A program made the translations under genes and the position numbers. Positions 18,366 through 47,960 of a DNA stretch of 64,000 bases are shown here, one piece after another (the first letter of the stretch is position 1; each line of letters opens with the position of its first letter). Where the stretch lies: contig JBNKBE010000003.1 of assembly GCA_050287085.1 (NCBI GenBank), positions 15,252 through 79,251 of the forward strand, given 5' to 3'. The DNA is from Polyangiaceae bacterium. GTDB taxonomy: Bacteria; Myxococcota_A; Polyangia; Polyangiales; Polyangiaceae. Under the pieces are notes generated by a model. That model made no database searches and was not told the origin of the DNA. It saw only the letters and a list, made by a program, of their open reading frames with translations.

Positions 18366-18433
18366 ATGAACAAGCACGACGGCCGGCGCGCTCTTGCTTC
18401 TGTAAGCGAAAGCGACGCGAAGGACTGCTACCG

Positions 18434-19321: not shown

Positions 19322-19340
19322 ACGTTTCCGTCCTGCGCCC

Positions 19341-27022: not shown

Positions 27023-27823
27023 ATGTTTTCGCGATTGCAGACTCTTCCCGGCGTAAAGCAAGTCATCAAGGCACGCTTCAACCGCGGGTTCGAAGGCGAC
27101 TGGGCCGGCAGCTTCCGTGGCGTCTTCAGTACCTTCGAGCAAGCGTCTCTCAGTGCGCCAGGCACCAAACCGCTCGGCTACAACCATGACGCCGCCAGCG
27201 AAATGTATGCGGAGCGCCTGCGAGAAGTAGTGGCGAGCGACTACCCCGTCATGTTTTGGCTGGGCAAGTTGATGGCCGGCGGCGCCCGGAACCTCTTCGA
27301 CCTCGGCGGACACGTCGGACTGGCCTGTCACGCCTACCAGCGCTACCTCGACTTCCCGGACGACTTCAGCTGGACGGTCTATGATGTCCCCGCGGTTCGC
27401 GCCACGGGCGAACGCCTCGCCGGGGAGCTGAGTTCGCGCATTTCGCCGCGGTTCACGGGCGACACGGCAGACGGCGCTGGCGTGGATGTCTTGCTCAGTG
27501 CTGGCGCCCTACAATACATCGACGAACCCCGTTTCGACGCGTATCTGGCGTCTTTGAAGCGGCTTCCTCGCAACATTCTTCTCAGCAAAATACCCCTTGG
27601 ACACAATCCAGAGTTCGTAACACTGCAGAATATTGGCACAGCCTATTGCCCCTACCGCATCTTCAACGACCACGAGTTCGTCGCAGGGCTGAAGCGCCTA
27701 GGTTACGAGGTACGTGACCGTTGGTTGAATGCTGAGGGCTGCAACATGGCGCTCAACCCCGAGCTCAGCGTGCCCAACTACACCGGCATGCTGCTGCAGC
27801 TGCCAATCGCATCGACGAGCTAG
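27023..27823 (+). CDS. Putative SAM-dependent methyltransferase (TIGR04325-like)
   Basis: FRGVFSTFEQA, DYPVMFWL, LFDLGGHVG motif I, WTVYDVP, SAGALQYI, FVTLQ. Confidence 0.8.
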   Translation: MFSRLQTLPGVKQVIKARFNRGFEGDWAGSFRGVFSTFEQASLSAPGTKPLGYNHDAASEMYAERLREVVASDYPVMFWLGKLMAGGARNLFDLGGHVGLACHAYQRYLDFPDDFSWTVYDVPAVRATGERLAGELSSRISPRFTGDTADGAGVDVLLSAGALQYIDEPRFDAYLASLKRLPRNILLSKIPLGHNPEFVTLQNIGTAYCPYRIFNDHEFVAGLKRLGYEVRDRWLNAEGCNMALNPELSVPNYTGMLLQLPIASTS

Positions 27824-31779: not shown

Positions 31780-34332
31780 CTACTGGGTAATCGCGGGTGA
31801 TGGCTGTCCCGAATAGACAGCATTGCACCGCGGATGCACTAGGTCGCTTCCCGGACAATCGAGGCCCTGAAAATCTGCGAGGGAGCGGGTGGGCTCTGCG
31901 TACCCGTCCGGAATCGCCAAGTTAGCGAAGGTGCGAAAGTACTGCAGGCAGGCATCCCGCCACCAACGGGCCTCGTAGTGCTGAATCTGCAGCAACTCCG
32001 AGACCTCCGCGAAGCGGCGGACGTCCACCCGACTTTCCACGGAATCCCAAGCAGCGCGCATGTCGCCAACAGCATCGACCCCTCGACTGTAGCGGTGGAC
32101 CAGCTCCTCCCACAGGGTGCGTCCTGAGCTCAGAGGCTCCTGCCAGCCAACGTGGTGGAAGAACAGGAGCAGGTCCTCCGGCACGGTATCCCGATTGGCC
32201 AGCATCTCGCGCAGGGGTCCGGCATATTGAGACACTGCGTTGCTTCCTGAAGCGGTACGATCAAAACCAAGCCCTTGCGCATCCGCCTTGTGGAAGTAGA
32301 CCGGATTCCATTCGGGCCGCCCCAGATTGCTCACCCACGGCCCCGGTCCGTAGTGATGATCGCTACCCATGATGTGTGCGAGCCCCAAGGGCGTCATGTA
32401 GTCGACGAGTGCTTGGCGGGACGCCATCATCATCGTGACGACGGGCATCAATAACGCAGGATCATTGCCGAAGGTCTGACGTGCCCATTCGGTAGCTACA
32501 GCCTCCGCACCCAGATCGGGATCCCAAGCCATACGCCCAAACGCGTACCAATTGGCCTGATTGAAGTGAGATCCGCTCCAATTCTCATCGCTGCCGACGT
32601 TGGCAACGCCCGCTATCACCGACCTGTCGTAGCCATGGAGCGAGCCGTCCACGACCCGCGCAACCGTAGAGCCCTCGCCGTCCACGTGAGTATCGCTTTG
32701 CAGCACCTCTTCGAAGACAGAGCCCACGTAGGCCAGATGCGAATCCTGCCCCAGGTACTCTTTGGTGATTTGGAGCTCCAGGGCCAAGGGGGTGTCGGGC
32801 ATCGCTCCAAAAAGTGGCGAAAACGGCTCTCGCGGCTGAAAGTCCAAGGGACCGTTTTTTACCTGAACAACGACATTCGGCAAAAACTGCCCGTCCAGCG
32901 GCTTGAACTCGTCGTAGGCCTCCCTGATGCGATCGATCGAGCCCCCCTCCGAATAGACAAAGGCCCGCCACATGACGATCCCACGGTCTCCCAGGGCCTC
33001 GGCCAGCATGTTGGCCCCGTCCGCATGAGAGCTTTGGTAGGTCTGCGGCCCCGGTTGTCCTTCGGAATTCGCCTTCACCAGAAAGCCCCCAAAATCAGGG
33101 ATCCGTTCATAGATTTCGTCGGCTTTCGACGCCCACCAAGCGCGAACCCCGGCGTTCTTGGGATCTGCCGTACCTTGCCCTCCGATTTCCATCGGTGCGC
33201 TGAAGCGTGCAGTGAGGAATACTCGAATCCCATAGGGACGAAAGACATCGGCCAGCGCAGCCACTTTGTCCAAGTACTGCGGAGTGAGCACTTGTGCGTC
33301 CGCGTTCACATTCGTCAACACCGTGCCGTTGATCCCAATCGACGCGCAGGCCCGCGCGTACTCGGTGTAGCGGGGAGATAAGGTCCCAGGCAGGTTGCCC
33401 CAATCCCACAGCGAGCGCCCCGCGTAGCCACGCTCAACGCTGCCGTTGAGATTGTCCCAATGATTCAACAGGCGATGCTCGATCTTCGGCGCGCCTTCCA
33501 GCATCAAGTTGCTGAGGGGGCGATGGCTTTGCAGATGACGCAGGAGCGCAAAGGCGCCGTACAACGCGCCAACCTCGGTGTTGCCAACAATCACCGTGGT
33601 TGGGTGTCCTTCAACTTCGGCATTAGTGACGACGTAAGCGTCGTCAGCGAGAGCGTCGAGGCTTACGTCCTGCGGTAGCGACGCCACTTCTGCCAGCGTC
33701 GCGGGGGTGCCGACCAACACCCCACCCTCGGCGTCCACGGCCGCGTTGACCGCGATTTGCTGACCGGTGAGGCCAGCCAGTCCCAACACCAGCTCATCGC
33801 GTGCCGCCCGCAGGGTCTCGGTCTGTCCCGGCTCGACAACGTAGCGGAACGCGTCCTGGTACTGGCCTGCACGAGGCGCCACGGTGACCGCCGGATAGCG
33901 CAGCCATAGCTGCTCCCCACTCTCGTTGGGCGCGGGCCTGGACGGCGGGTCGTATACCAACTCGTCCTCATCATCGCCCCCTACCGCAGCGCCACCAGCG
34001 TTGGGCTCCACCCCGGCACTTCCCGCGAGCGGCCCTGACCCGGCGGCTCCCTCGCCTCCGGTGTTGGCGCCGCCCTGCGACTGAGCGCCGCCCTGCGACT
34101 GAGCGCCGCCCTGCGACTGAGCGCCGCCCTGCGACTGAGCGCCGCCCTGCTGGCCACCGCCCTGCGACTGAGCGCCGCCTCCCCCGCCCGAAACGTGGGT
34201 CGCGCCCGACGTCGCCCCTGCCGTGGACATCGCGCCGGGACTAGGAGCCATCGAATCGTCCGAACAGGCCGGCACGACACACACGCACGATACCACGACG
34301 ACAAGGCGCGGCAGAAAGGATCGAATGGACAT
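31780..34332 (-). CDS. aguA: Alpha-glucuronidase (GH67), lipoprotein
   Basis: LWLRY, LNHWDNLNGSVERGYAG, FLVKANSEGQPGP, KNGPLDFQPREP, ELQITKEYLGQ, YMTPLGL..HHYGP; lipobox VPAC. Confidence 0.95.
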   Translation of the reverse strand: MSIRSFLPRLVVVVSCVCVVPACSDDSMAPSPGAMSTAGATSGATHVSGGGGGAQSQGGGQQGGAQSQGGAQSQGGAQSQGGAQSQGGANTGGEGAAGSGPLAGSAGVEPNAGGAAVGGDDEDELVYDPPSRPAPNESGEQLWLRYPAVTVAPRAGQYQDAFRYVVEPGQTETLRAARDELVLGLAGLTGQQIAVNAAVDAEGGVLVGTPATLAEVASLPQDVSLDALADDAYVVTNAEVEGHPTTVIVGNTEVGALYGAFALLRHLQSHRPLSNLMLEGAPKIEHRLLNHWDNLNGSVERGYAGRSLWDWGNLPGTLSPRYTEYARACASIGINGTVLTNVNADAQVLTPQYLDKVAALADVFRPYGIRVFLTARFSAPMEIGGQGTADPKNAGVRAWWASKADEIYERIPDFGGFLVKANSEGQPGPQTYQSSHADGANMLAEALGDRGIVMWRAFVYSEGGSIDRIREAYDEFKPLDGQFLPNVVVQVKNGPLDFQPREPFSPLFGAMPDTPLALELQITKEYLGQDSHLAYVGSVFEEVLQSDTHVDGEGSTVARVVDGSLHGYDRSVIAGVANVGSDENWSGSHFNQANWYAFGRMAWDPDLGAEAVATEWARQTFGNDPALLMPVVTMMMASRQALVDYMTPLGLAHIMGSDHHYGPGPWVSNLGRPEWNPVYFHKADAQGLGFDRTASGSNAVSQYAGPLREMLANRDTVPEDLLLFFHHVGWQEPLSSGRTLWEELVHRYSRGVDAVGDMRAAWDSVESRVDVRRFAEVSELLQIQHYEARWWRDACLQYFRTFANLAIPDGYAEPTRSLADFQGLDCPGSDLVHPRCNAVYSGQPSPAITQ
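34067..34178. repeat. Coding 18-bp tandem repeat (GGAQSQ units) in the GH67 linker
   Basis: GCGCCGCCCTGCGACTGA repeated about 5 times with one interrupted unit. Confidence 0.85.
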
Positions 34333-34742
34333 GAGCTTACCCCGGGGCTGCATACCAAGTCTGCGCCAGTAGGAACACATTCTCCCGCTCGCGCCGACCG
34401 CGGTGCCATTGTAGACGCGCGCCCCGGCCCAAAGCAGCCTCCGCACGCCGATCGTCCGCTGGATATCCTGTTCGTGACGCAATTTGCCTGTAGTTCCAAG
34501 ATTCTAAGGGCAGCGGCGCAGCTCTCATACCCTGCGCGAAAGTCCCGATGGACGCCTGGCGCCGGTGTCGAAGTCACCCGCGTGTCCCTTGCACACGACC
34601 GCGAAACGCCGCCGGCGACGCTGGCACGTCGACTCCTCCGGCCTTTTGGGGCGACCGCCGTTCTCGGTCATAGGCTGCCTTGCGACCGAGCGCATGGGCC
34701 ATAGCGCTCAAGGCTGCCCGGGCTCTGCCGTACGTCTCGGGC

Positions 34743-37700
34743 ATGGGTTGGAGCGACTACGAGATAACCAAGACGCTAAGCAAGGGCAGCGTCACCGCCG
34801 TCTACCGCGCCGTGCGCAAGCACGACGGGGCAAGACTAGTGATAAAGACATTCGTCACGGAGTATCCACCCGCGCACCTCCGCGCACGTCTCGAGCGCGA
34901 GGCTCATAGGCTCCGTCGCGTGCAGTCATCAAATGTCGTTGAGTTGATCGCCTATGAGCCGAGCGAATCCCTTCCGTTATTAGCGCTTGCGGACGTAGAC
35001 GGAGTCCCCCTGTCGGGATTGGGACCCTTCCCGATCTCGAGCTTTCTGTCGATCGCGCTACAACTGACTCGCGGCCTGGCGGCTCTGCACGCGAGCGGCA
35101 TTATCCACCGAGATGTAAAGCCGGACAACGCGGTGCTCAACCAGGCGACGGGCAGGGCCTATTTGATCGACCTCAGCAGCGCGAGCCTGGAGGGGGAGCA
35201 CGAGCTCACCACCAAGAGTGGTACCGAACCGGTCTCTCCACCCTACATGTCACCCGAGCAGAGCGGACGTATGAATCGCTCGGTCGACTACCGCACCGAC
35301 TTCTACTCACTCGGGATCACGTTCTACGAACTCCTGAGTGGATCGCTTCCCTTCGAAGCAGAAGACGCGATGGGGTGGGTTCACTGCCACCTGTCGCGAG
35401 CAGTACCGGACGTCCGCGAACGCATGGCCTCCGTCCCACAAACGCTGGCCCTCATCATTGCCAAGCTGACGGAAAAGGACCCGGATGCGCGATACCAGGG
35501 TTGCGCCGGCCTGCTAGCAGATCTCGAGCGCTGTCGCGACGGCCTCGAGCGTAGCGGGGAAGTGCCGCACTTCGAACCTGGCGCCTCTGACCTTTCCCCG
35601 GTGTTCAGATTGCCTACGCAGGTCTTCGGCCGCAACGCGGAGATACAGGACTTGGTGGAACAGTTCGAGGCATCACGGTCTTCGAGCGCACGCCTTCTCT
35701 TGGTTGAAGGAGCCGTTGGCGTGGGCAAGAGCGCAGTGCTAAGCGCCCTGCAGCCCAACGTGCAGTTGGCCGGTGGCTTCTTCGCACGCGGCAGCTTTGA
35801 TCGACTGGGTCAGGCCATCCCCTACAGCGGTGTCTTGAAAGCTTTAGACCAAGTCATGTCAACACTGCTTGCGCTCTCAGAGCAAGAGTTGGACGTGCAG
35901 CGCTCCAGAATCTTGAGCCGTGTTGGCCCCAACGGACGTGTTCTGACTGAGTTGCTACCGAGCAGCGAGCTGGTGCTGGGAGCTCAACCCGCATTGGCAG
36001 AGCTTGGACCCGCTGAGGCGCTGCGCCGTCTCAAGGCCGTGTTATCGGGCTTGCTTCAAGCACTCGCCACCGCAGAACATCCTCTCGTCCTTCTGCTCGA
36101 CGATCTCCAATGGGCCGACCCGGGAACGCTCGAGTTGCTACGGGATTGGTTTGTGGAGCAACAACTCGAATGCCTACTGGTGGCAGGTGGCGTACGCACC
36201 GACGAAGATGAGAACCAAGCCGTCACCAAGTCCCTGGCTCAGCTACGGGGTGAAGCCCCCAGCGCGGTCACCGAGCTCAAGCTTGGTCCCTTGTCGCGCC
36301 CTGCACTCGAGTCCCTCGTCGGTGCCGCCATCGGGAAAGACTCCCCCTTGCGCAGTCCCCTCGGCGAGATGTTGGAGCAGAAGACGGCGGGAAACCCATA
36401 TTTTGCCGGTTCACTGCTCCGGGAGCTCGCCCGCCAAAGCATATTACGCTTCGACTCCGAGGCGGCGCATTGGACCTGCGACCTAGCTGCAGCCAGCGCC
36501 ATCCGGGTCAGTGACAACGTAGCAGGCATGATGCTTGACCGGCTGCGCTCTCTCCCCGAAGCAGTCCTACACCTACTTCAAGTCGCCGCCTGCTTCGGCA
36601 TCCAAACTCAGATGGATGCCCTGGCAAGAGTAGCAAAGCTCGAGTGTACCGACGTTGAGACCATCAGTGCCGCGGCGGTCAAGGAAGACTTGGTTGTCCT
36701 CATACGGCAAGAGGATCGTTCGATCTTGCGTTTTACGGACGAACGCGTGCAACAAGCCGCCTACGACCTGTCGACGCCAGACAGACGAGCCGAAATTCAT
36801 CTTGCCATTGCACGCTATCAAAACACGCAGCCGACAAGCCACGGCCTCCTGGAGCGGGTGAATCACTACAATAGAGGCTGCCAGCACATCACGGATGCGG
36901 CGGAATTCGACACGCTGGTCGAGCTCAACCGCAAGGCGGGCGACCAGGCGATGCAGAGCGCCGCCTATCCGAGCGCCCTCAGCTACTTCCAGCAAGCCAG
37001 TCAGGCCCTGACAGACGCAAGCGACGAAGTCCGAAAGCGAAACAGCTTCATCGTCGGCCTGGCGCTAGCGGAATGTCTCTATCAGACGACGCAGCTGGAC
37101 GCAGCCGCACGCCAATGCGAACGGCTATTGGAACACGCTGCGGACGAGCTGGAACGTGCCCACGTGACGGTCTTCCAGGCACGGCTAGCGGAGCATGCCG
37201 GGGACTTTCAAGGTACCCTGGACCTCTTGCGCGCCGGACTCGCGCAGCTGAAGATCGAACTGCCCGCCGATCATGATGCCATCGGCCAAGCTATCGGCGG
37301 CGGCATTGAGAAGATGCAGGCGCACCTCGCCCAGACACCGCTGGCGGACATTCCCAAGCTGCCTCTGATGGAAAACCAGGCGATGGCCCTGGCAATGCGG
37401 ATGCTCTACCACGTCGTGCCAAGCGCGATCCAGACCTACCCGCCCCTCTTCATTCTCGCTGAGCTGCTGATGTTCGATCTCACGCTACGAGAGGGACTCA
37501 CGCCCTACGCCTGCAAGAACGTCATGGACTGCGGTATTATCCAGGGCTCCGTTCTGGGTGACTACCGCCGCGCGTTCGACTTCGGACAAAGCGCTTTCGC
37601 CCTGATCGAACGGTTCCGGCCGACCGCGATCGAGTCCTCCGCGGCATTCGTCCAGGCGGCATTCATCGCTCATTGGTCCATGCCCGTGGAAGAGTCCTTA

Positions 37701-40655
37701 ACAACATTCGACCACGCCGAAACGATCGGGCGACAAACAGGAGACGTACAACACACCTTATACGCTCAAACGCATCGCTTGCATCGACTGCTCTTGATCG
37801 GACGCCCACTGCCCCAGGTTCAGGAGGAGCTTGAGCGCCTAGTTCCTGCATTGGAGGCCGCAAAGAGCGTCAACCACGTCGTGGGTGCCCAGGTCGTCAG
37901 AGCGACACTGGAACGCCTTCAAGGGAGCGAGAGAGACACAGAAGCACTCGCTGCGCGGCGCCTGGGGCAATGGGCGGAACTCGAGAACTGCGGCAACGCA
38001 CAATGGCTCTTCGCCTTCGCAGAAATGCAACTCTTCAACGCCGTCATTCTGCAGCACTGGGACGAAGCCCACCAATGGTTGGAGAAGCTGGCGCCGCTGG
38101 CACCAGCGGGCAGCACCCTCATATCCGTACCCGAATACGCCGCGTGCGAGACGATTGCCTTGTGTGCCAACTGGGACACGATGACTCCGGAGGCGCGCGA
38201 GCAAGTCCAGGCTACGGTAACAGCCAATCTAGCCCAGCTCGAGGATTGGGCTAGCTGCTGCGCCGCCAACTTCGAACACAAGTATCTGCTGGCGAAAGCG
38301 GAATGGGCTCGTTGCCACAAAGAGCCGGCAGACGTGGTTGCCAGCCTCTACGAAGGTGCGGCCGAGACCGCGGGAGAAAACTTCACTCCGCTGAAGGCAT
38401 TCGCCCTGGAGCGACATGGCCGCTACTGGCAAGCTCGTCAGCAAACGAGACTAGCAAGGGCCCTGCTGCGAGAGGCCTATCAGCTCTACGCTCGCTGGGG
38501 CGCGAGGCTCAAACTGGAGCACCTCTCCGAAGAGTATCCGGGATGGTTTGCTGAAACGATGGTTCAATCAGGTCCGAGTGCGACGCAGCGCCTCGCCCGG
38601 AGCACCAATGCCACTGCGACGGCTGCGCTCGACCTGGCAGCGGTCATGAAGTCCACCCAGGCGATATCGGGCGAAGTCAAGCTGGAGCGCCTATTTGCCC
38701 GCCTCATGGAAACCATCATTGAGAACGCGGGCGCTGAGTGTGGCTACCTCATGCTCCTGGACGCCGACGGTCACTTGCAGGTCGAGGCCCGCGCGGACCT
38801 TCACGAGGCTAGCGGATGCCTAGCGTCGAGAAGCCCCGAAGACTATTCGATGTGTCTGAGTGTGGTCCGTTACGTAGCCCGCAGCGGGGAAACCTTGGTC
38901 CTCGACGACGCCGTCAGCGACCCACAACATGGCTGCGATCCGTATTTTCAGGCCTCCAAGGTGCGTTCGGTCCTCTGCTTGCCTATCAAGTCCGGCGGCA
39001 AGCTGGTTGGCTTAGTGTACGCCGAAAACAATGCAACGAGCCATGCGTTCGTTCCGGAGAAGCTCGCGGCACTCAGCATGATAGCGAGTCAGGCCGCCAT
39101 TTCCATCACCAATGCTCGATTGTATGATCATCTAGAGGAAAAGGTCGCGGAGCGTACGGTGGCCCTACGGAAGAAGACCGACGACGTCGTCAAGCTGCTG
39201 GAGAATATCCAGCAGGGAGTCTTCACTGTGTTGAACGACGGTACCATCCACCCCGAGTATTCGCACCATCTTGAGGAAATTCTGGAGACGAACGCCATCG
39301 CCGGAAAGACTCTCAGAGAAGTCTTGCTCTCAAACACGAACTTGGCCCCGGCACAATTGGCAGCGGTGGACGACATGGTCACGCTAGCGGGCGGCACACC
39401 GCTGTTTCTATTCGAGGTCAACCAGCACTGCCTGCCGACCGAGGTCCAGCTTGAACTCGGGGACGGACGCAGGAAGCTAGTCGCTCTCGAATGGATCCCG
39501 CTCACCGACGAGGACGACATTGTAACCACGGTCATGATCACGGCCAAGGACACGACCGAGCTGCGCGCGCTCCAAGCAGAAACGGCACGACAGCGTAGCC
39601 AGATGCTGATGGTTGAGGAGCTACTTCGCCTCAGTGGAAGCGACTTCCTACAGTTCGCTGAGACCTGTGACCTTCTGATGCGACGCAACCGCGAGCTCAT
39701 ACAGCAACCCGGCTCGCGAGAGGGCGTAGTCGCGGAGCTATTCCGCAACACCCACACCATCAAAGGAAACGCCGGCGTCGTTGGGTTGAGAAGACTGGTA
39801 GACGCAGCTCACGAACTCGAAGAGCTCTACTGCAAACTCCAGAACGGCGATACGTCGTGGGAACAGGAGGACGCCTTGGCCGCCGAAGACCGCGTGCAGA
39901 CGAGTCTGCAAGACTACCGGGAGGCATACTACACGCACCTGGCGGGTCGTGAGCGATACGCCGATCAGAGCGTTCCCCTCGCCGAGCTGCGACACGTCAT
40001 GGACGTTGCATCATCACCCGACGCGCTCGCCGCCGAGCTCAAGTTCCTGGTAAACAAGGCCAGCAACAACACCCTTGAAGCCCTCCTTGCGGTTCCCATT
40101 CAGAGCACGCGCCGCATCGCCGAGAACCTAGCCAAGAACCCTCCTGTCTTCAAACTCGAGGCGGCTGACCTGCACATTCCGGAGTCCATTGGTCCAACGC
40201 TGAGAAGCGTATTTACCCACGTGTTGCGCAACAGCATTGACCATGGTCTCGAAACGCCAGCAGAACGTCAAGCTGCGGGCAAGTCCGCCATCGGCGTGAT
40301 TGTGATAGAAGGACACCAACGCGCCGACATGTTGGAGTTTCGAGTCACCGACGATGGCCGCGGATTGGCTCTCGAGAAGCTACGTGCCCGCTTCGTGAAG
40401 ACACACCCCAATGCGGTGCATCCAACGGTCGGAGAGATCGCCGATTCCGTATTCGGCGCGGGCAACTCCACCGCAGCCCAAGTCACGGAACTGTCGGGGC
40501 GTGGCGTGGGGCTAGACGCGGTGCGTAGTTTCCTACGAGCCGCTGGCGGAGACGCCCGCATCGAGTTGCTGAATGAAGAGAAGAACGGCTTTGCGCCCTT
40601 CTGCTTGGTGCTCACCTGCGCTGCCGAACAAAGTGCCATACAAGCAGCACAATGA
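34743..40655 (+). CDS. Multidomain Ser/Thr kinase-AAA ATPase-TPR-like-GAF-PAS-like-Hpt-HATPase (CheA-like) sensor kinase
   Basis: HRDVKPDN, YMSPEQSGRMNRSVDYRTDFYSLG; Walker A GAVGVGKS; LLLDDLQWAD; GAF (SVLCLPI...VYAENN); Hpt LFRNTHTIKG; HVLRNSIDHG, DDGRG, SGRGVGLD. Confidence 0.92.
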   Translation: MGWSDYEITKTLSKGSVTAVYRAVRKHDGARLVIKTFVTEYPPAHLRARLEREAHRLRRVQSSNVVELIAYEPSESLPLLALADVDGVPLSGLGPFPISSFLSIALQLTRGLAALHASGIIHRDVKPDNAVLNQATGRAYLIDLSSASLEGEHELTTKSGTEPVSPPYMSPEQSGRMNRSVDYRTDFYSLGITFYELLSGSLPFEAEDAMGWVHCHLSRAVPDVRERMASVPQTLALIIAKLTEKDPDARYQGCAGLLADLERCRDGLERSGEVPHFEPGASDLSPVFRLPTQVFGRNAEIQDLVEQFEASRSSSARLLLVEGAVGVGKSAVLSALQPNVQLAGGFFARGSFDRLGQAIPYSGVLKALDQVMSTLLALSEQELDVQRSRILSRVGPNGRVLTELLPSSELVLGAQPALAELGPAEALRRLKAVLSGLLQALATAEHPLVLLLDDLQWADPGTLELLRDWFVEQQLECLLVAGGVRTDEDENQAVTKSLAQLRGEAPSAVTELKLGPLSRPALESLVGAAIGKDSPLRSPLGEMLEQKTAGNPYFAGSLLRELARQSILRFDSEAAHWTCDLAAASAIRVSDNVAGMMLDRLRSLPEAVLHLLQVAACFGIQTQMDALARVAKLECTDVETISAAAVKEDLVVLIRQEDRSILRFTDERVQQAAYDLSTPDRRAEIHLAIARYQNTQPTSHGLLERVNHYNRGCQHITDAAEFDTLVELNRKAGDQAMQSAAYPSALSYFQQASQALTDASDEVRKRNSFIVGLALAECLYQTTQLDAAARQCERLLEHAADELERAHVTVFQARLAEHAGDFQGTLDLLRAGLAQLKIELPADHDAIGQAIGGGIEKMQAHLAQTPLADIPKLPLMENQAMALAMRMLYHVVPSAIQTYPPLFILAELLMFDLTLREGLTPYACKNVMDCGIIQGSVLGDYRRAFDFGQSAFALIERFRPTAIESSAAFVQAAFIAHWSMPVEESLTTFDHAETIGRQTGDVQHTLYAQTHRLHRLLLIGRPLPQVQEELERLVPALEAAKSVNHVVGAQVVRATLERLQGSERDTEALAARRLGQWAELENCGNAQWLFAFAEMQLFNAVILQHWDEAHQWLEKLAPLAPAGSTLISVPEYAACETIALCANWDTMTPEAREQVQATVTANLAQLEDWASCCAANFEHKYLLAKAEWARCHKEPADVVASLYEGAAETAGENFTPLKAFALERHGRYWQARQQTRLARALLREAYQLYARWGARLKLEHLSEEYPGWFAETMVQSGPSATQRLARSTNATATAALDLAAVMKSTQAISGEVKLERLFARLMETIIENAGAECGYLMLLDADGHLQVEARADLHEASGCLASRSPEDYSMCLSVVRYVARSGETLVLDDAVSDPQHGCDPYFQASKVRSVLCLPIKSGGKLVGLVYAENNATSHAFVPEKLAALSMIASQAAISITNARLYDHLEEKVAERTVALRKKTDDVVKLLENIQQGVFTVLNDGTIHPEYSHHLEEILETNAIAGKTLREVLLSNTNLAPAQLAAVDDMVTLAGGTPLFLFEVNQHCLPTEVQLELGDGRRKLVALEWIPLTDEDDIVTTVMITAKDTTELRALQAETARQRSQMLMVEELLRLSGSDFLQFAETCDLLMRRNRELIQQPGSREGVVAELFRNTHTIKGNAGVVGLRRLVDAAHELEELYCKLQNGDTSWEQEDALAAEDRVQTSLQDYREAYYTHLAGRERYADQSVPLAELRHVMDVASSPDALAAELKFLVNKASNNTLEALLAVPIQSTRRIAENLAKNPPVFKLEAADLHIPESIGPTLRSVFTHVLRNSIDHGLETPAERQAAGKSAIGVIVIEGHQRADMLEFRVTDDGRGLALEKLRARFVKTHPNAVHPTVGEIADSVFGAGNSTAAQVTELSGRGVGLDAVRSFLRAAGGDARIELLNEEKNGFAPFCLVLTCAAEQSAIQAAQ

Positions 40656-40826
40656 CTTGCACCGTCCCGATCGGGACGAAATCGCCCTCTTCCGCACGCG
40701 GCGAACACTCATGCGGCTCGCTCGCAGCGGACTCCTTCTGCATGCGGCTCCCAGTGGACGCTGGTAAGTGTGCGAGCAATTAGGGCTCGGACTTCGATGC
40801 ACTCGCGCCGCCAAGGGCACGCTGAA

Positions 40827-40844
40827 CTGGCACAGCTCATGCAA
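40827..40844 (+). promoter_or_regulatory. Candidate sigma-54 (-24/-12) promoter
   Basis: CTGGCACAGCTCATGCAA has GG-N10-GC with TGGCAC and TGCA, about 16 bp upstream of ATG 40860. Confidence 0.55.
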
Positions 40845-40859
40845 CGAGCCGATGCAGCA

Positions 40860-42272
40860 ATGAACACCGACAGAATACTGTTGCTTGAGGATGAGATTAC
40901 GCTGCGGGATTCGTTGTGCCGAATGCTGCGAACACAGCTGGGCTTCGAGACACACGCGACCGGTTCCTTGGAAGAGGGACTCGAATTGGTCGAGTCCCTC
41001 TCGCCGGCGCTAGTTCTCACCGACCTGGAATTGCCAGACGGTTCCGGACTCCAGTTGCTAGACAGTCCATCGATCCAAAGCAAGCAGACCCCCATCCTCT
41101 TCATCACCGGTGAGCTGGAGCGTTTCGCAGCCGACATTCCTGAAGCGAGACGGCTAGATGTACTGAGCAAACCGCTCGACCTGAGTGATCTCGGAGGTCG
41201 GATTGAGAAGAAGCTGCGGCTACGGCTCAGCAATCCTCCCCCCAAGTCCGCGTTCACCGTAGCCGACTACCTGCAACTGGCCGGCATGGCACGCCGGAGC
41301 GTCATGGTGGGCATCTCGTCCCCGAGCGGCGCAAGCGGCAAGATATTCGTCGAGGAGGGGCGTCCCGTTTGGGCCGAGGATGACGAGGGCAGCGGGCCAG
41401 AGGCATTCGCACGCCTCGCCGTACTCGTCGGCGCCGACATCGCGTGCAAGCCCTGCAGCGAATGGCCCGCCGAACCCAATCTCAATCAAAGCCTGGAGTC
41501 CATGTTGCTCGAGGCCGTTCGGGTCAGCGACGAGCGAGCGCACAAGTCCGCGCCCTCGGGCCGCTCACCCGCACCGCCGTCTGCAGCGAAACGCCCGGGT
41601 CCACCCCGCCCGGCTCCGCGCGCCCAGGCGACCGGGGCAAGCTCGAGCGAAGAAGCCATCCCGCCCACCGATCGGCACCCTGGCAACGCAGCCTTAGAAG
41701 TGAAGCCGACAGGGGCCAACCCGCAGACGAGCACCTCCGCCGACCCGCGCGGAATCCAAGCGCAAGCGCCCGCTGCGGAGACAACAAGCCCGCCACCGTC
41801 GCCTGCACAACCGGCCAGCGCTCAGCGCCGCCCGCGCCAGGCGCTCACGACGCCACCCAGACCAGGACACGGACTGGGTGTCCCGCAGGCGCCTTTTAAC
41901 GCCCGTGGCGTCCCCTCGGGCGCCGCCCCGCGGTCGACGCGCAGAGCTCCTTCTCTGGAAGAGCTCTCCGCCGCGTGTCCCTCGCTACTCGGTTTCACCC
42001 GAGCTGATAGGCACGGCAGTGTGGTAGCCATGACTGGGGAGCTCGACGCTGAGACAACATGTGCTGTCGCGACGTTGGCAAGACAAAACACGGCGGCCAT
42101 GGCCGCCGAGCTCGGGCTGGGAGAAGTTCGTTCGTGGCAGATATCCATGGGCGAAAGCACCTGGTACGTGGTCGAGGAGGCAGACGGAATGGTCATCGCC
42201 CGCGGTGAAGTCACCAAGAACCCATCGGCAATACTCAACAAGCTCAACAAATTGCTCCTCCATAAGCCATGA
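40860..42272 (+). CDS. Response regulator: REC-DUF4388(PatA_N-like)-Pro-rich linker-roadblock/LC7-like domain
   Basis: RILLLEDE, LTDLELPDGSG, FITG, SKP; VADYLQLA...GKIFVEEGRPVWA...MLLEAVRVSDE; C-terminal LLGFTRADRHGSVVA...DAETTCAVA. Confidence 0.82.
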   Translation: MNTDRILLLEDEITLRDSLCRMLRTQLGFETHATGSLEEGLELVESLSPALVLTDLELPDGSGLQLLDSPSIQSKQTPILFITGELERFAADIPEARRLDVLSKPLDLSDLGGRIEKKLRLRLSNPPPKSAFTVADYLQLAGMARRSVMVGISSPSGASGKIFVEEGRPVWAEDDEGSGPEAFARLAVLVGADIACKPCSEWPAEPNLNQSLESMLLEAVRVSDERAHKSAPSGRSPAPPSAAKRPGPPRPAPRAQATGASSSEEAIPPTDRHPGNAALEVKPTGANPQTSTSADPRGIQAQAPAAETTSPPPSPAQPASAQRRPRQALTTPPRPGHGLGVPQAPFNARGVPSGAAPRSTRRAPSLEELSAACPSLLGFTRADRHGSVVAMTGELDAETTCAVATLARQNTAAMAAELGLGEVRSWQISMGESTWYVVEEADGMVIARGEVTKNPSAILNKLNKLLLHKP

Positions 42273-42937
42273 ACAACGAAGCGATCGCGAGTCTCAGCGC
42301 AACGTCCGGTGTCCGCGGGGTTGCCATCTTCGACGACAACGGTGGATGCCTAGCCAACGAGCTTCCGCCCCCCTATGAGCCCAACTTCGTACGGGACGCG
42401 TTAGATCATCTTTCCAGAGCGTTTGATGTCTTTGCTTCCCTCGATGAAAGCGACGCGGCAGGTTTCTCCATGAACTGCGACGAAGGCTGTCTGGTGCTAC
42501 GGCGCAGCGGTCCTCACACCGTGATTGCCCTCACGGAGCCTGACATCAACATGAACATGCTGAGCGTAGCGCTCAACGTAGCCACGATGAATCTCAATCG
42601 AAGCATGTCTCATCCAAGCACGCCTGAGTCCACGCGCGCGTTCAGCTCACAACTAAGCCACGGCAGTCAGCTACTTTCACCCTTGCCTGATGATGCCGTT
42701 GGACTTCCCCCGGACGCGCTCGATCGCGCGATCGTGCAACAGCTATTGACACTCTACCGCGACTATCTCGGTCCAGCAGCGAAGATGGTCCTAAAACAGC
42801 AGCTAGATGAGTTGGGGGTCACCTCCCGCACCCTTCGGTACAGCCAATTCGGCGACCTCCTGGTGCGCCTATCCAGAAAAATCCCAACCGAGGACCGCCA
42901 GCAGACCTTCTTGCATTCCGCACAGAAGCTCCTCTAG
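42269..42937 (+). CDS. Roadblock/LC7 (MglB-like) domain protein with C-terminal helical domain
   Basis: IASLSATSGVRGVAIFDDNGGCLANELP...; ATGA overlap with the upstream stop. Confidence 0.75.
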   Translation: MNNEAIASLSATSGVRGVAIFDDNGGCLANELPPPYEPNFVRDALDHLSRAFDVFASLDESDAAGFSMNCDEGCLVLRRSGPHTVIALTEPDINMNMLSVALNVATMNLNRSMSHPSTPESTRAFSSQLSHGSQLLSPLPDDAVGLPPDALDRAIVQQLLTLYRDYLGPAAKMVLKQQLDELGVTSRTLRYSQFGDLLVRLSRKIPTEDRQQTFLHSAQKLL

Positions 42938-42962
42938 TACCCCCCTCTCGCCGTTCGACAAC

Positions 42963-44726
42963 ATGTTGCCGCAACCGCAGAATCCCCCGATACGCGAACT
43001 CGCGTCCACGGGAACGATCCTTCGCGGTCGCTCCCTTGGAGCGCTCGGTCCTGGCACGCACCTCGGCGCCTATGTCATCGAACGACACTTGGGCCAGGGC
43101 GCCGAGGGCAACGTCTTCTTGGCGCGAGACAGTGTCCTCGGTCGTCGTGTGGCTCTCAAGACATTGCGAGCGGGGACTGCAGGGGCCACGCGTGGCGTCG
43201 AAGAGGCTCGGATGATGGCCAGTCTCGAACACCCCAACATCGTTCGAGTTTACCACGTCGAACGACACCAACTGGTTTGGTTCGTCGCGCTTGAGTACGT
43301 GCCCGGGGGCAGCCTACATTCATATATCCGTAGGGTCGGCCCCCTTCCCATCTCCGAAGCAGTAACGCTATGCGCTCAAGCCGCTGATGCCTTAGCCCTG
43401 GCGCATCAGCTTGGCCTGACCCATCGCGACGTGAAGCCGCACAATCTGCTGCTCACAGACGAAGGTTCGTTGAAGCTTTCCGACTTTGGTCTCGCGCGAG
43501 TAGACGGTACGCGAGGTGGCCATCAGGGCCCTATCGGAACGCCCGCGTTCTTGGCGCCCGAGTGCTGGAATAATGAACCAGCTACGCACGCGGTCGACGT
43601 CTACGCTCTCGGCGCGTGCCTCTACTACATGCTTGCAGGGCGCACTCCCTTTCCTTTCCGAGACATGGACCAGCTGTGCCATGCACATCAGCGGCTGAAT
43701 CCAAAGCTGCCTACGTCTCTTCCGACCGCCGTCCAAGAGCTCATCCTGCGCATGATGGCCAAGCTCCCGGAAGAACGTCCTCAATGCGATATCACACTCG
43801 TCGATGAGCTCCGACGCCTGGCCCGGGATCCCCTAGGAGCCTGCTTAGCCACGGCTAGCCCTGAACCTAGGAGTAGTCCGCTGGTCACAGATGATCAGCA
43901 GAACTTGCTCGACTCCGTAATGCTCTACGGCCCAGAACGCGAAGCCGTGGGGGCGCTGATAACCGCACTCCAGGCAAACCATCCCGTGTGCATCACCGCC
44001 CCTCGCCTGGCTGAAGCCGTCTCACTCTTGCATGCCGCGCTTCGTCAGCTGGCACCGGCCATACGGACCTGCGCTATCGTGACCCTCAACGAGAGCACTG
44101 GGTCTCTCCGGCAAGCTATCGTCGGTCAAGCCTGCCCCGAGGCACCGCAAGTGCTGGGACGTGCGCTGGCGCGGATCGGGGAATCGAGTCGCCATCAGGC
44201 CCTGCTCGAGATTCGCACCGAACGTCCCTTGAACGCCGCACAAACTTCGGAACTCAACGCAGTGCTCCGAGAAAGCCGGGCGCAAGGTACAGCCTTGGTA
44301 CTGCTCGCCGGAAACGCCATACAAGCGCCTTCCGTTAATGACAGCGATGACATCTACGTGCTGGCGCTGCCGCCACCCGACTTTGAGACCTTTGCCCTGC
44401 GCGTCCAGGCTTGGTTTGCCTTCGCCACCGAAGGTCGATTGCGCTGCACGAGAGACGCGCTCGTCTTGTTGCATCACATCGAACGGCAGGGGGGGCTGCC
44501 GTGGTTCACGGTATGTCGTGCTAGCGCCCTGATCGCAGCGGCCGCCAAGCTGCGACTGGTTACCACCTGGGCAGTTGACGCGGCCCATGCTCTCCAGGGG
44601 CCTCTGCGCAATCTCGCAGATGTGCCTGCTAGGTACTTTCGACCACCCAAACGGTGGCCCGATGAGACGATGTCCGCCCGCCTTGAGGAGCTTCGCACAA
44701 GTGTAGCCCAAGCGGGGTGCGACTAG
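42963..44726 (+). CDS. Cytoplasmic Ser/Thr kinase fused to a degenerate ExeA-like AAA domain
   Basis: LGQGAEG, VALK, HRDVKPHN, DFG, GTPAFLAPE; C-terminal ExeA-like pattern without Walker A. Confidence 0.85.
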   Translation: MLPQPQNPPIRELASTGTILRGRSLGALGPGTHLGAYVIERHLGQGAEGNVFLARDSVLGRRVALKTLRAGTAGATRGVEEARMMASLEHPNIVRVYHVERHQLVWFVALEYVPGGSLHSYIRRVGPLPISEAVTLCAQAADALALAHQLGLTHRDVKPHNLLLTDEGSLKLSDFGLARVDGTRGGHQGPIGTPAFLAPECWNNEPATHAVDVYALGACLYYMLAGRTPFPFRDMDQLCHAHQRLNPKLPTSLPTAVQELILRMMAKLPEERPQCDITLVDELRRLARDPLGACLATASPEPRSSPLVTDDQQNLLDSVMLYGPEREAVGALITALQANHPVCITAPRLAEAVSLLHAALRQLAPAIRTCAIVTLNESTGSLRQAIVGQACPEAPQVLGRALARIGESSRHQALLEIRTERPLNAAQTSELNAVLRESRAQGTALVLLAGNAIQAPSVNDSDDIYVLALPPPDFETFALRVQAWFAFATEGRLRCTRDALVLLHHIERQGGLPWFTVCRASALIAAAAKLRLVTTWAVDAAHALQGPLRNLADVPARYFRPPKRWPDETMSARLEELRTSVAQAGCD

Positions 44727-44777
44727 CCGCTCAGGGGAGCGCTGCGATTTCTGTCTATTGCAGGGAGTAGAGAAGTA

Positions 44778-45584
44778 ATGTTCAGGACCATTCAAAGCCG
44801 AATGTTGGCGATCTTCATTGGGTTCCTAGTGCTACTAGCAACCACCGTCATCATCAGTCGCATCGTGCTTACAATACAAGCCAACGACAGCCTGATTATC
44901 AACCTAGCGGGCCGTCAGCGCATGTTGACACAGAAGATGACGAAGGAGAGCCTGCAGCTTGCCAACGCCGCGACGCTCCAAGAGTCCGGGGCGGTGGCCA
45001 CGGCAAAAGACGAACTATCGCAGACGATGCGGGTGTTCGAGGCGACATTGCTGGCCCTCAAGAACGGTGGCTCCGCGCCTATTAACCTGGAAATGACGCG
45101 CATGCGGGAGACACCGGCTGCAGGCGATCAGGACTTGCAGCGACAACTGGCCAAAGTCGCGAGCCTCTGGGAGCCGTTCAAGGCGCACCTTCAGACCATC
45201 ATCCAATCTGGCGGAGCTGACCGTGACGCCACAACCGCCGTCGGGAGGGCCAATCTCGAACTGCTGTATGAGACCAACGCTGCGGTAACCCTGATGCAGC
45301 TCTCCTCCGAAAGAAGGGTGGACCTCTTGTTCCTCGTCCAAACCCTGGCCCTGCTATTGGGCGTTGCTTTGGTCGGCGTCGGCGCGTGGCTTGCACGCGC
45401 TAGCATTGCAACACCGATCAGCGAGTTGGCAGAGGCCGCTCGCAAAATGAGCACAGGGGACTTGTCAGTGGAGTTCAGCCTCGCCGGCACCGATGAGGTC
45501 AGAACCCTGAGCGCCTCGTTCGACCGAATGCGGGCGAGCTTGCTCGCCACCGTCGGGGCGGGTGGCTCCGATGACGACCTCTAG
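44778..45584 (+). CDS. NarX/PilJ-N-type membrane sensor with HAMP and no output domain
   Basis: TM1, P-box INLAGRQRMLTQKM, helical periplasmic domain, TM2, HAMP (PISELAEAARKMSTGDL...DEVRTLSASFDRM), then stop. Confidence 0.88.
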   Translation: MFRTIQSRMLAIFIGFLVLLATTVIISRIVLTIQANDSLIINLAGRQRMLTQKMTKESLQLANAATLQESGAVATAKDELSQTMRVFEATLLALKNGGSAPINLEMTRMRETPAAGDQDLQRQLAKVASLWEPFKAHLQTIIQSGGADRDATTAVGRANLELLYETNAAVTLMQLSSERRVDLLFLVQTLALLLGVALVGVGAWLARASIATPISELAEAARKMSTGDLSVEFSLAGTDEVRTLSASFDRMRASLLATVGAGGSDDDL

Positions 45585-45817
45585 TCCCAGAGTCGCGCAG
45601 CGTTGAACACATCCGCACACCTTGCGGCCCGCCTGGATAAACCGCGCCCCAGCTCGCGGCCCGGCCCTTTTTTGCTCACGACCTTAACGAATCGCGCGTC
45701 ACCGCCGCTCCCTTCCTCATGGCGCCCCCGAAACAGCGCTGGTAGCCCCATTCGCACCCGCGCGCTGCTCCCAGCGGCTCGGAGGGCTGCGCTGGCTCCG
45801 CAAGGTTGAGCGAGCAT

Positions 45818-47305
45818 ATGGCCGCAACAAAGGACCCCATCGACAGCATTCCGTCCAGTCGCCTCCACGCGGCAAAGCGTTCCTGCTTGCGTGCCGCTGA
45901 AAGCCCCGAGCTCGACGACTGCGAGACCTCAAAGGTGCTGCGGCGCTCCTGGATGCACGGCGTAGCGACAATCCGGAGCGCCAACAACATCGACAACGTG
46001 GGCGCCCTGATCAGTCGCACAGCGCAGCCGCTCTGTGCGTCGCTCCATGCCAACGATCTATACGAAGCCGAGTTACATCTGACCGAGCTCACCTTCGACC
46101 TACGCGCTTCGGGTGAACCGCGACTTGCGGTGCTCGCTGTGGGGCGAGCGCTGCAACGTGCGCTCCAGGGACTTCCCGAACGCTGCGGCGATCTGCGAAG
46201 ACTGGACTCAGCGCCGCTCTATGGGCGGGCCGTCGCCGCCGCCTACGAGCCCACTGCGTCGACGCCGGTCTTGGAAAGCACGGCGCGTGCGATCCGGCCG
46301 AGGGCACCCGCTCAGCGCGGGAACAGCGATGCCCTAGCCCGACTGCTGGTCGGTTCAAGTCCTGCCATGGTGCGCCTTCGTTCCGAAGTCGCGGCGATTG
46401 CTCGCACATCGGGAAACGTCTACATCATCGGTGAAAGCGGCACCGGCAAAGAACTGATCGCTCAGGCATTGCACCAGCTCGGCGCACCCGCGGGAAGTCC
46501 GTTGCAGTGCATCAACTGTGCAGCCCTGCCGCGGGAGCTGATCGAAAGCGAACTCTTTGGCCATACCGCGGGAGCCTTCACAGGCGGACAGCGTGCGTCC
46601 CAAGGGCTGATGCGCGCCGCGGGAAACGGAACGCTCTTTCTGGACGAATTGGTCGATATGCCGCTGGAGCTACAGCCCAAGCTGCTGCGTGCGTTGGAGC
46701 AGCGTCGCGTCCGACCGGTTGGTGGCTTGACGGAGCTGCCGATTCAGGCGCGTGTCGTAGCGGCCAGCAATCGCGACCCGCACGCTGCGCAGCAGGCAGG
46801 CTCGCTGCGTTCCGACCTATTCTTCCGGCTCTGTGTCCATCGCGTCGATGTGCCTCCGCTGAGAGCGCGACGCGACGACATTCCGCTGCTGCTCGACTAC
46901 TTCGCGCGGCGGCTCAACCAGGAAGGACGCGCCACCCCGCGGCGGATCGCCCCGGAGGCGATGGAGTTGTTGTACAACTACTCCTGGCCCGGCAACGTTC
47001 GAGAACTTCGCAATGTCGTCGAACACTTCTCCGCTTTCGCAGATGACGACACCGTCCACGTCGAAGACGTCCCGTCCTACCTGCAAGAAGGCCATGCCCC
47101 GTCCAAAGCGACGCCAGTCCGAGGTGGCACAGGGCCCATGCCCGAAGCGTCGAAGCTCGAGTCCCTCGACAGTGTCATCGCTCAACACTTGCGCCGCGCG
47201 CTTCAGGTAACCGGTGGTAATAAAACACGAGCGGCAAAACTGCTCGGCGTATCTAGACATCAGCTCTATATTCGACTGCAGCAGCTGCAACTTGTCGATG
47301 ACTAG
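45818..47305 (+). CDS. Sigma-54-dependent transcriptional activator (AAA+ and Fis-type HTH)
   Basis: GESGTGKE, INCAAL, ESELFGH, GAFTGG, LFLDE, WPGNVREL, GNKTRAAKLLGVSR. Start uncertain (45806 or 45818). Confidence 0.93.
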   Translation: MAATKDPIDSIPSSRLHAAKRSCLRAAESPELDDCETSKVLRRSWMHGVATIRSANNIDNVGALISRTAQPLCASLHANDLYEAELHLTELTFDLRASGEPRLAVLAVGRALQRALQGLPERCGDLRRLDSAPLYGRAVAAAYEPTASTPVLESTARAIRPRAPAQRGNSDALARLLVGSSPAMVRLRSEVAAIARTSGNVYIIGESGTGKELIAQALHQLGAPAGSPLQCINCAALPRELIESELFGHTAGAFTGGQRASQGLMRAAGNGTLFLDELVDMPLELQPKLLRALEQRRVRPVGGLTELPIQARVVAASNRDPHAAQQAGSLRSDLFFRLCVHRVDVPPLRARRDDIPLLLDYFARRLNQEGRATPRRIAPEAMELLYNYSWPGNVRELRNVVEHFSAFADDDTVHVEDVPSYLQEGHAPSKATPVRGGTGPMPEASKLESLDSVIAQHLRRALQVTGGNKTRAAKLLGVSRHQLYIRLQQLQLVDD

Positions 47306-47314
47306 ATGCTCGGA

Positions 47315-47960
47315 CTATTCTTCCGTAGCCCTCCGCAACGCTTCCACATCTAGCAGCCTGACCTGTCTCGCCAGCCCGCCCTCGTGCTGTATCCGTCCTC
47401 GTGCGACGAGACGCCTGAAGCCTCGACTCAACGTCTCGCCAGTCAGGTTGAGATGACTGTCCAGGTGACGCTTGACTACGTGGAGTTCCAACACGGGCCC
47501 CTGGGCGCTCAGCTTCTGCCAGCAGAAAGCGAGCGAGGCGCCCGTCAGCGGTCCGAAGGGACATCCTGAAGCAAGACGACCCAATGATGAAGCCAGTCGG
47601 CCATCGAAGCCATGACCCGTAGGCCAAGTCGCGGACGAGTTTCCAGCACCCTTAAGAGTTCAGCCGAAAGCAGTAAAACCCGCGCATCCACCGTCGCCTC
47701 ACAGCTCGCAAGGGTGGCAAAGCCCCCAAGCGCCGCCGCTTCGACAAAAACGTCTGGCACGGCTCCACCCAAGGTATTACCTGCACCTTGCCGCTAGCCC
47801 CCACAGCGAAGACCCGTTCCTGACCTTCCGCCACGATGAACATGCCGGGCGGTGTCTGACCGGCATGCACCAACACTTCACGCGCCCGGTAGGTCAGCGC
47901 GTGCGCGATGACGGCCAAGGCCTCAAACTCCCCTAAGGCACGCGCCCCCTGCCGAAGGCC
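47315..47960 (-). pseudogene. Frameshifted Crp/Fnr-family regulator
   Basis: Consecutive Crp/Fnr segments lie in different frames: YRAREVLVHAGQTPPGMFIVAEG / VFVEAAALGGF...CEATVDARVLLL / ADGRLARFLL / HLNLTGETLSRGFRRL. Confidence 0.8.

Follow-up and report, generated by a model that had tools for sequence, protein, structure and literature searches.

The HAMP domain of Af1503 has served as a model HAMP for years. In Archaeoglobus fulgidus this receptor ends after its HAMP domain, is gene-coupled to a four-helix protein with an LGPx(x)A motif (Af1502) and sits in a transporter-rich context (PMC4834066), and both the output of Af1503-type receptors and the function that STAC domains serve are stated as unknown in PMC13022988 and PMC5715377. 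In this study, we examined a locus that shares these traits, located in a 64,000-nt stretch of DNA (hereafter the window) from a Polyangiaceae bacterium (GCA_050287085.1, contig JBNKBE010000003.1, 15,252-79,251, forward strand). Five of its genes, g2 to g6, form a conserved myxobacterial cassette in which an enzyme-less nitrate sensor probably signals via adaptors to a kinase and a gene activator. We read the five as a GTPase-free, autoregulated relay for external nitrate that would run from a HAMP domain through STAC and roadblock domains to a kinase and a σ54 activator, with protein contacts that we infer, and we place the probability of this reading at about 0.5.

By analogy, the cassette may be regarded as an Af1503/Af1502-like pair to which modules of the roadblock, PATAN, kinase and σ54 kinds have been added. 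Compared with the archaeal pair as presented in PMC4834066, it is bacterial, its probable STAC domain is fused to a roadblock, its sensor has a defined ligand motif (the N-box), and it adds a promoter and candidate outputs, namely a Ser/Thr kinase–pseudo-AAA+ protein, a PATAN–REC protein and a σ54 activator. The sensor, g5, resembles McpN of Pseudomonas aeruginosa and NarX/NarQ in its PilJ four-helix sensor, N-box or P-box, two transmembrane helices and HAMP domain but, unlike these proteins as described in PMC6381276 and PMC8199190, it has neither a chemoreceptor signalling domain nor a histidine kinase, and no Che or NarL partners. Roadblock proteins and PATAN neighbours are also features of MglA–MglB and of the conservons CvnABCD, the latter with a HAMP membrane sensor as well (PMC4316618); in contrast to both, the cassette has neither a GTPase nor a histidine-kinase module on its sensor; what it carries instead is a Ser/Thr kinase, a σ54 activator and two roadblocks that are divergent. 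As neither a coupled small GTPase nor a CvnA-type histidine-kinase ATPase module is found (g5 ends after HAMP), the cassette does not belong to the MglAB or conservon families; the same source counted 328 orphan MglB homologues, none of which it listed as characterised as of 2014. Finally, the SLC5–STAC transceptors CbrA/CrbS and the sensor Amts Ks-Amt5/Sd-Amt1 likewise serve nutrient signalling, with a small cytoplasmic module that reads a transporter-like or membrane input, but these are presented as single-chain fusions to a kinase or cyclase (PMC13022988, PMC5715377, PMC11152129), whereas the sensor and relay of the cassette are separate and exchangeable.

Results

A conserved cassette without a GTPase

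Six open reading frames (ORFs), all on the + strand, lie at 34743-40655 (g1), 40860-42272 (g2), 42269-42937 (g3), 42963-44726 (g4), 44778-45584 (g5) and 45818-47305 (g6), with successive intergenic distances of 204, -4, 25, 51 and 233 bp. Pfam assigns Pkinase, AAA_16, GAF, Hpt and HATPase_c to g1, REC and DUF4388 to g2, Pkinase to g4, PilJ and HAMP to g5, and Sigma54_activat and HTH_8 to g6; a Pfam search of the window copy of g3 returned no match. An earlier sequence-only reading had described these six same-strand genes, with the middle four tightly spaced, as one signalling system, and the ORF coordinates, the Pfam domains and the gaps of -4, 25 and 51 bp across g2-g5 agree with it on layout and content.

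Co-conservation was scanned by tblastn with 13 domain queries against 57 loci. The order g2–g3–g4–g5–g6 recurs in 7 other distinct loci (G016, G096, L022/L040, L031, L033/L034, L039 and L042; in L039 a contig end cuts g2), G006 keeps g2–g5 without g6, and L023/L043 lacks the kinase and has, in place of g6, an NtrC-like regulator together with a PAS kinase. This co-conservation of g2–g6 is far beyond chance, the named relatives being Polyangiaceae, Sorangium and Anaeromyxobacteraceae. All five ORFs are intact in the window, and g3–g5 share 44–58% identity with their homologues.

That no GTPase or CheW accompanies these genes, as the sequence-only reading had claimed, proved correct. No MglA-like sequence was found in the window by tblastn, the MglA query matched only the control locus among 37 sources, and the Arf-family matches present in 10/10 cassette genomes are on other contigs or at a distance of 80 kb or more; the idea of a GTPase simply lost from this copy was rejected, no GTPase being present at the homologous loci examined. 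CheW is likewise absent from the window, the 8 CheW matches of the genome all lying outside it. The gene-neighbourhood comparison proposed by the same reading therefore upholds an undescribed, co-conserved, GTPase-free roadblock cassette with nitrate-type sensing for g2–g6, and not for g1, which is not co-conserved. Elsewhere in the genome are mglBA and two additional MglA-like genes (L017:9483-10604, L128:7548-8282, L129:3034-4903); the MglA-like gene on C45 is extended at its C-terminus and neighbours a roadblock-like gene.

An output-less receptor and its candidate adaptors

The receptor g5 (44778..45584, + strand) consists of a transmembrane segment, a PilJ sensor, a second transmembrane segment, HAMP and an acidic tail with no output domain, an Af1503-like architecture. 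It shows two hydrophobic segments and ends ~15 residues past HAMP, which is the only cytosolic domain of this membrane sensor. A truncation or frameshift was rejected as an explanation: because 79 of the 80 best non-self matches are PilJ+HAMP proteins of 257–275 aa with the same short architecture, we regard g5 as a stable form. Its best PDB matches are McpN (6GCV) and the Af1503 HAMP. A predicted nitrate-binding N-box (44898..44933, + strand) matches exactly the 12-residue pattern published for McpN (PMC6381276), and by analogy with that protein nitrate is the putative ligand. The N-box is exact in the window and in 79/91 aligned rows, its Gly and nitrate-binding Arg are invariant (91/91), and it is the sole N-box in the host genome; 53 of the 91 aligned receptors end in the same four acidic/Leu residues.

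When 401 genomes of the host's order were surveyed, a HAMP-only PilJ receptor was found in 9, at 10 places. At each of the ten, the cassette includes a STAC-like gene, which lies directly upstream of the receptor in 7 and across the kinase in 3. Two of them, judged by eye from the motif and the roadblock match, have roadblock–STAC directly upstream and a degenerate N-box. Five are bare STAC+receptor pairs without a roadblock, which points to STAC as the partner of the HAMP-only receptor.

In g3 (42269..42937, + strand), a roadblock (42269–42604) is fused to a four-helix PF26309 domain, probably STAC (42707–42934). PF26309, which we take to be DUF8082, was found on 27/27 g3 homologues and PF03259 on 2/27; a literature search conducted without most subscription journals or supplements found no paper that names DUF8082 or that pairs DUF4388 or Af1503 with roadblock. 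The N-terminus matches roadblock structures in the PDB at E 0.011–0.48 and, in a two-sequence test, a known roadblock at E 7e-10, in keeping with the roadblock/LC7 profile. For the C-terminus, a 17-sequence profile gave Af1502 (5A1Q) as the top PDB match, a weak one at E 0.03 over 28 residues, and, in a helical domain of 60–90 residues, helix 1 and helix 2 are separated by an LGPx(x)A motif, as described for STAC in PMC4834066. Because of this match and this motif, the domain is a probable STAC. Its loop has conserved Thr/Ser residues, which are candidate targets of the g4 kinase.

The second candidate adaptor, g2 (40860..42272, + strand), comprises REC, a DUF4388/PATAN-like domain, a Pro-rich linker and a roadblock-like domain (~41950–42269). 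The last shows a weak Robl_LC7 match in 6/20 homologues (best E 3e-4; window copy E 0.058), a weak PDB match (E 1.1) and an hhalign match to the g3 roadblock with a probability of 63% and E 7e-5. Both roadblocks are distant from MglB, and a tree of 25 roadblock domains was largely unresolved. The REC Asp is intact in the window and changed in 2/7 homologues (G096, G006). Fusions of kinase and roadblock occur in G324, G003 and G714.

Candidate outputs

Downstream of the adaptors, g4 (42963..44726, + strand) encodes a Ser/Thr kinase whose catalytic motifs are intact (13/13 share invariant HRD, K, N and DFG), fused to a probably inactive AAA+ domain. The AlphaFold2 (AF2) model of this C-terminus, with a predicted local distance difference test (pLDDT) score of 86.9, has an AAA+ fold matching Cdc6/Orc1, MuB and TnsC (Z 13–13.7, root-mean-square deviation (rmsd) 4.4–5.5 Å, 214–255 residues aligned). 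Walker A is absent in 14/14 sequences, which do not show the Walker A/B pair, and a distant homologue in G234 keeps the P-loop. Among 13 members, no AAA Pfam match to the C-terminus was found except one lid-domain match at E 0.25; AAA_16/AAA_22 look-alikes score 0.88–0.90. ExeA, with which the sequence-only reading had associated this domain, is absent among the fold matches listed, which does not amount to an exclusion.

The last gene, g6 (45818..47305, + strand), encodes a σ54 enhancer-binding protein with a Sigma54_activat AAA+ domain carrying Walker motifs, a Fis helix-turn-helix (HTH) and a helical input domain that may be globin-like (RsbR-N/MtR-like). The AF2 model of the input domain (pLDDT 74.6) matches MtR 3ZTA at Z 9.6, rmsd 6.7 and 123 aligned residues, within the chance range for helical domains, and RsbR-N 2BNL at Z 8.7, rmsd 3.7 and 115 aligned, tied with unrelated helical domains. 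It has no conserved His; the ESM Atlas gave no usable match, Foldseek none at E <= 0.001, and a profile search only 7 family members and one weak match.

A σ54-type promoter and a palindromic site before g2

For the promoter scan we used the σ54 -24/-12 consensus. A predicted σ54-type -24/-12 promoter for g2–g5 lies at 40828..40843 (+ strand), and its pattern is present in the upstream regions of homologues: the element occurs upstream of g2 in 12/14 regions with invariant GG and GC columns, as a variant in G096 and not at all in G006, the copy without g6. Further upstream, at 40664..40677 (+ strand), is a palindromic 14-bp enhancer-like site, GTCCCGATCGGGAC, single in the window and tandem in homologues, which is putatively, and probably, the g6 site. 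The 14-mer was seen in 10/14 regions, two others being cut short, L022 having visible variants and G006 none. Promoter and enhancer are hence missing exactly where g6 is missing. The host genome has rpoN, it holds no other perfect copy of GTCCCGATCGGGAC, and the enhancer–promoter pair occurs in it once; site and promoter would fall within 330 bp by chance at ~1e-4, a figure for patterns drawn from the same sequences. The simplest reading is that g6 autoactivates the g2 promoter, presumably by binding the enhancer.

Among distant cassettes, 14 approximate starts yielded 0 promoters and 1 weak enhancer-like site; the tandem enhancer pattern had 0 matches in 5 genomes; and a genome matrix scan returned no outstanding enhancer–promoter pair, at a threshold at which the window's own promoter was missed. 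A scan for σ70 promoters and terminators stayed at chance level. Upstream of g6, a conserved bipartite motif (45684..45708, + strand) occurs in 7/8 regions against 0.4% by chance, with a pattern fitted after seeing the alignment (the first spacing tried gave 0/8); as a lead only, it is possibly g6's own promoter.

Nitrogen genes and exchangeable inputs around related modules

A wider profile matched in 60/401 genomes of the order at 70 places, a tally that includes the unpublished G750 and G758, which enter no other result given here. Of the 69 places outside the window's genome, 53 were surveyed for context (16 were not fetched; 10/53 have only ~1.5 kb of flank). Within 3 kb of these 53 loci we found PATAN at 37, Amt at 28, a kinase at 7, an N-box receptor at 7, a rhodopsin at 3, NirC-type and Tll0287-HAMP proteins at 1, and MglA-like genes at 0. 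Amt, of which a genome has only ~2–4 loci, also adjoins the modules of G155 and G003. With a kinase near 7/53 loci, the earlier suggestion that a kinase occupies the GTPase slot applies to only part of the family.

Both narGH and narK are present in the host; narG and narH are followed by narJ/narI-like genes, with narK separate (L127:5213-12751, L126:9269-10873). The Anaeromyxobacteraceae copy is flanked by nrfA and hcp, a NarK-type gene follows g6 in L042, and nirB follows the G734 copy. In more detail, the Anaeromyxobacteraceae copy (L023:3291-14687) lies between nrfA and Rrf2–hcp–hemerythrin genes, a two-component pair replacing g4 and g6. The G734 locus (L108:5168-13999) has roadblock–DUF4388, a kinase, an output-less Tll0287-HAMP protein and a nirBD fusion, with a divergent roadblock–STAC and NirC-type transporter. 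G375 also has an output-less Tll0287-HAMP protein as a swapped input.

Several other arrangements were seen. In G229, a [FeFe]-hydrogenase-like FeS protein without an output domain is translationally coupled to roadblock–STAC (L070:8296-10814), and a second roadblock/kinase–AAA set converges on this pair. Roadblock genes adjoin a microbial rhodopsin in G666, G083 and G577 (L124:4768-8065, L125:1496-4632, L112:5458-7801), accompanied in G083 by an RPE65-family gene and in G666 by a kinase, possibly a light-sensing version of the module. The host genome carries a second module (L019:8968-11912; G000 C10, ~44970-47900) made of amt, a PATAN–roadblock-like gene and a roadblock gene, its amt split by a frameshift near L019:11153. 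An operon on G000 C15 (L018:6835-11384) encodes a PAS histidine kinase, roadblock, REC–DUF4388, a ParA-like ATPase, an unknown gene and an ODP-family protein, and is a roadblock module with ParA and without a GTPase. Membrane proteins with OmpA domains recur beside distant roadblock/kinase modules (L048:6373-10735, L067:6175-7476, L069:8111-9124).

Because the roadblock module is shared with other membrane inputs, above all Amt, we regard the family mainly as a nitrogen-status relay. The same genes might act on transport itself, if roadblock or STAC bound Amt, NirC or NarK as GlnK binds AmtB, with the nitrate receptor and kinase gating the binding. Such post-translational control of nitrogen transport would suit the presence of Amt beside 28/53 loci in both orientations and beside the second PATAN–roadblock pair of the host, the canonical-looking C-terminus of 4/6 linked Amts inspected, and the proposal of STAC as a regulator of solute transport (PMC4834066). 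We consider it unlikely, as there is no transporter in the window cassette or in most nitrate-type copies, and two Amts beside roadblock–STAC end in a receptor-like acidic tail that fits a sensor role, sensor Amts being known, but as fusions (PMC11152129).

A role in polarity or motility of the Mgl/conservon kind, which the sequence-only reading had proposed, gained no direct evidence: the context is one of nitrogen genes (Amt, NirC/NirB, NrfA, NarK) and the closest precedent is Af1503/Af1502. In its most explicit form, the same input would guide movement by nitrate without Che proteins, with the g2 PATAN domain acting on the type IV pilus motor and/or the roadblocks on MglA in trans, and transcription merely setting the amount of the cassette; this corresponds to the second of the two options in the sequence-only reading. 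Such an output is possible, if doubtful. PATAN is reported as an output domain that binds PilB1/PilC in Synechocystis (bioRxiv 2021.06.11.447907), PATAN genes lie near some mglA genes (PMC4316618), the host carries mglBA and MglA-like genes elsewhere, as the cassette genomes do Arf-family matches, and the enhancer occurs only before the cassette itself. On the other hand, no GTPase lies near any locus examined, no pilus genes were among the neighbours scanned, both roadblocks are far from MglB, and nitrogen genes dominate the context. An MglA or motility role is unsupported by these data.

The upstream neighbour g1

The gene upstream of the cassette, g1 (34743..40655, + strand), encodes a giant protein with the layout Ser/Thr kinase–AAA_16–TPR-like–GAF–PAS-like–Hpt–HATPase and no CheW. 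Its Hpt His and HATPase boxes are present, and the DFG of its kinase reads DLS. The sequence-only reading was right that g1 ends in a CheA-like manner insofar as its tail shares an Hpt and a CheA-like HATPase with CheA; as a CheA it was rejected, since the domain search found no CheW domain together with HATPase_c, and a CheW domain is given for 100% of CheA in PMC10782961. It also differs from CheA in being fused to a kinase–AAA–GAF front end and unlinked to the cassette.

By tblastn, none of the 8 distinct homologous loci whose flank reaches 3 kb or more has g1 upstream of g2, and the AAA/TPR, GAF and CheA-like parts of g1 have no match in any homologous locus scanned. Conversely, g1-like proteins occur in 14/17 other genomes of the genus (E <= 1e-30), several of the matches being full length and in sister genomes without a g3 match; no g1 homologue was found in the cassette carrier G016, and in G006 the g1-like match is on a different contig from the cassette. 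The Hpt–HATPase tail has at least five near-full-length paralogues in the host genome, where an expanded family of CheW-less Hpt–HATPase kinases with varied N-termini was seen (G000 C13, C16 (two), C9, C42, C12). We liken the g1 tail to such kinases, which we take to be the 'class III' kinases. Because g1 is not co-conserved, is distributed independently, has tail paralogues and lacks CheW, it is by these comparisons a neighbour and not part of the system, and the His-Asp/CheA arm is a chance neighbour.

Membership of g1 in the cassette was accordingly rejected, and the joint six-gene system of the sequence-only reading did not survive. In that system g1 would be the histidine kinase acting on the g2 REC by phosphorylation, which would use the intact Hpt His of g1 and the intact Asp of g2, would supply the histidine kinase that the cassette lacks, and would fit two genes on the same strand 204 bp apart. 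Since g1 is missing beside all eight flanked cassettes and is distributed independently, a conserved promoter separates g1 from g2, and the REC Asp is lost in two copies, we judge it very improbable.

Further from the cassette, window 11469-27168 holds convergent polyketide synthase/aminotransferase and non-ribosomal peptide synthetase genes with hydrolase and JmjC/cupin genes, a secondary-metabolite cluster. Divergent from g1 is a GH67 alpha-glucuronidase (31780-34482, - strand) whose N-terminal linker has a short tandem peptide repeat. At 59039-63931 (- strand), with PA14 and laminin-G genes as neighbours, is the gene of a 1630-aa protein in which 15 cysteine-rich repeats of the DUF4215 type occur together with a PA14-like domain.

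Discussion

In this study, we delineated a five-gene cassette. What we observe of it are its parts and the way they are co-conserved, an N-box, the lack of a GTPase, a promoter with its enhancer and a nitrogen-rich context. Three of its features had escaped the sequence-only reading: the STAC-like domain of g3, the promoter and enhancer before g2, and the globin-like input domain proposed for g6. From these parts we propose the following relay. Nitrate would bind at the dimer axis of the g5 sensor via the N-box Arg, as in McpN, and the signal would pass via the second transmembrane helix to the output-less HAMP. The STAC-like domain of g3 would dock on the g5 HAMP or acidic tail and read the HAMP, a step suggested by the strict gene coupling and by the precedents of Af1503/Af1502 and of CbrA, where the membrane partner of STAC is docked by it at the cytoplasmic face (PMC13022988). 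The g3 roadblock would then pair with the g2 roadblock and recruit the PATAN–REC protein and the g4 kinase, with the dead AAA+ domain of g4 as a scaffold; we propose this recruitment because gene fusions of kinase–roadblock and kinase–roadblock–STAC exist. The complex may control g6 through its non-heme globin-like domain, and g6 would activate the σ54 promoter before g2 from the palindromic enhancer, closing a feedback loop. The same roadblock module would be plugged into other membrane inputs, Amt above all.

Several points weigh against this relay. Every protein contact in it is predicted. The STAC assignment depends on a match of E 0.03 over 28 residues and a motif, the roadblock call at the g2 C-terminus is weak, as is the modelled globin-like call for g6, and the cassette contains no cognate kinase for the g2 REC. 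Deletion of STAC from CbrA or CrbS gave no growth phenotype according to PMC5715377. The GAFTGA motif of g6 is non-canonical, its last Ala being Gly or Ser in 8/8 (GAFTGG in the window, G[AS]FTGS in 7/7 homologues), and the cassette is kept without g6 in G006 and without g4 in L023 and L056. The window promoter scores only 3 bits against the matrix from homologues, the enhancer–promoter pair was found only before g2 with no nitrate-metabolism regulon shown, and no σ54 consensus was found at the narG and narK loci. In most Amt-linked loci the roadblock comes with neither STAC nor a kinase. Lastly, because the 53 loci are related to one another and neither they nor the swaps were resolved by the tree, 28 Amt links are not 28 events, and the counts show persistence, including through inversion, rather than independent origins.

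A further reading is that g5 responds to a ligand other than nitrate, or that the window copy is a decaying accessory cassette without current function. In its favour, the distribution is patchy (9/401 genomes of the order), the g6 input domain and the promoter of the window diverge from their homologues, and the amt at the genome's second locus is frameshifted. We hold this to be the least probable account, in view of five intact ORFs that keep their catalytic motifs, N-box, promoter and enhancer at 44–58% identity for g3–g5.

A wider proposal may be ventured, to which we hold only tentatively: that Roadblock(–STAC)/PATAN modules are a third general route for membrane signals in bacteria, besides two-component and Che systems. 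Under this proposal a single set of soluble adaptors would dock on interchangeable output-less inputs (the nitrate HAMP receptor, stand-alone Amt transceptors, NirC, heme-HAMP, the FeS sensor and rhodopsins), its output being a Ser/Thr kinase–pseudo-AAA+ protein and a σ54 activator, with neither a GTPase nor a histidine kinase in the path. The present cassette would be the version for nitrate, and its ligand and reporter promoter would be known already.

In conclusion, the cassette offers a direct test of output-less receptors, as it combines a predictable ligand (nitrate), a one-residue negative control and a candidate docking partner with candidate outputs and a σ54 reporter of its own. That this roadblock subfamily is frequently linked to Amt suggests, in turn, an unrecognised nitrogen-sensing route in soil myxobacteria, possibly including stand-alone Amt sensors.

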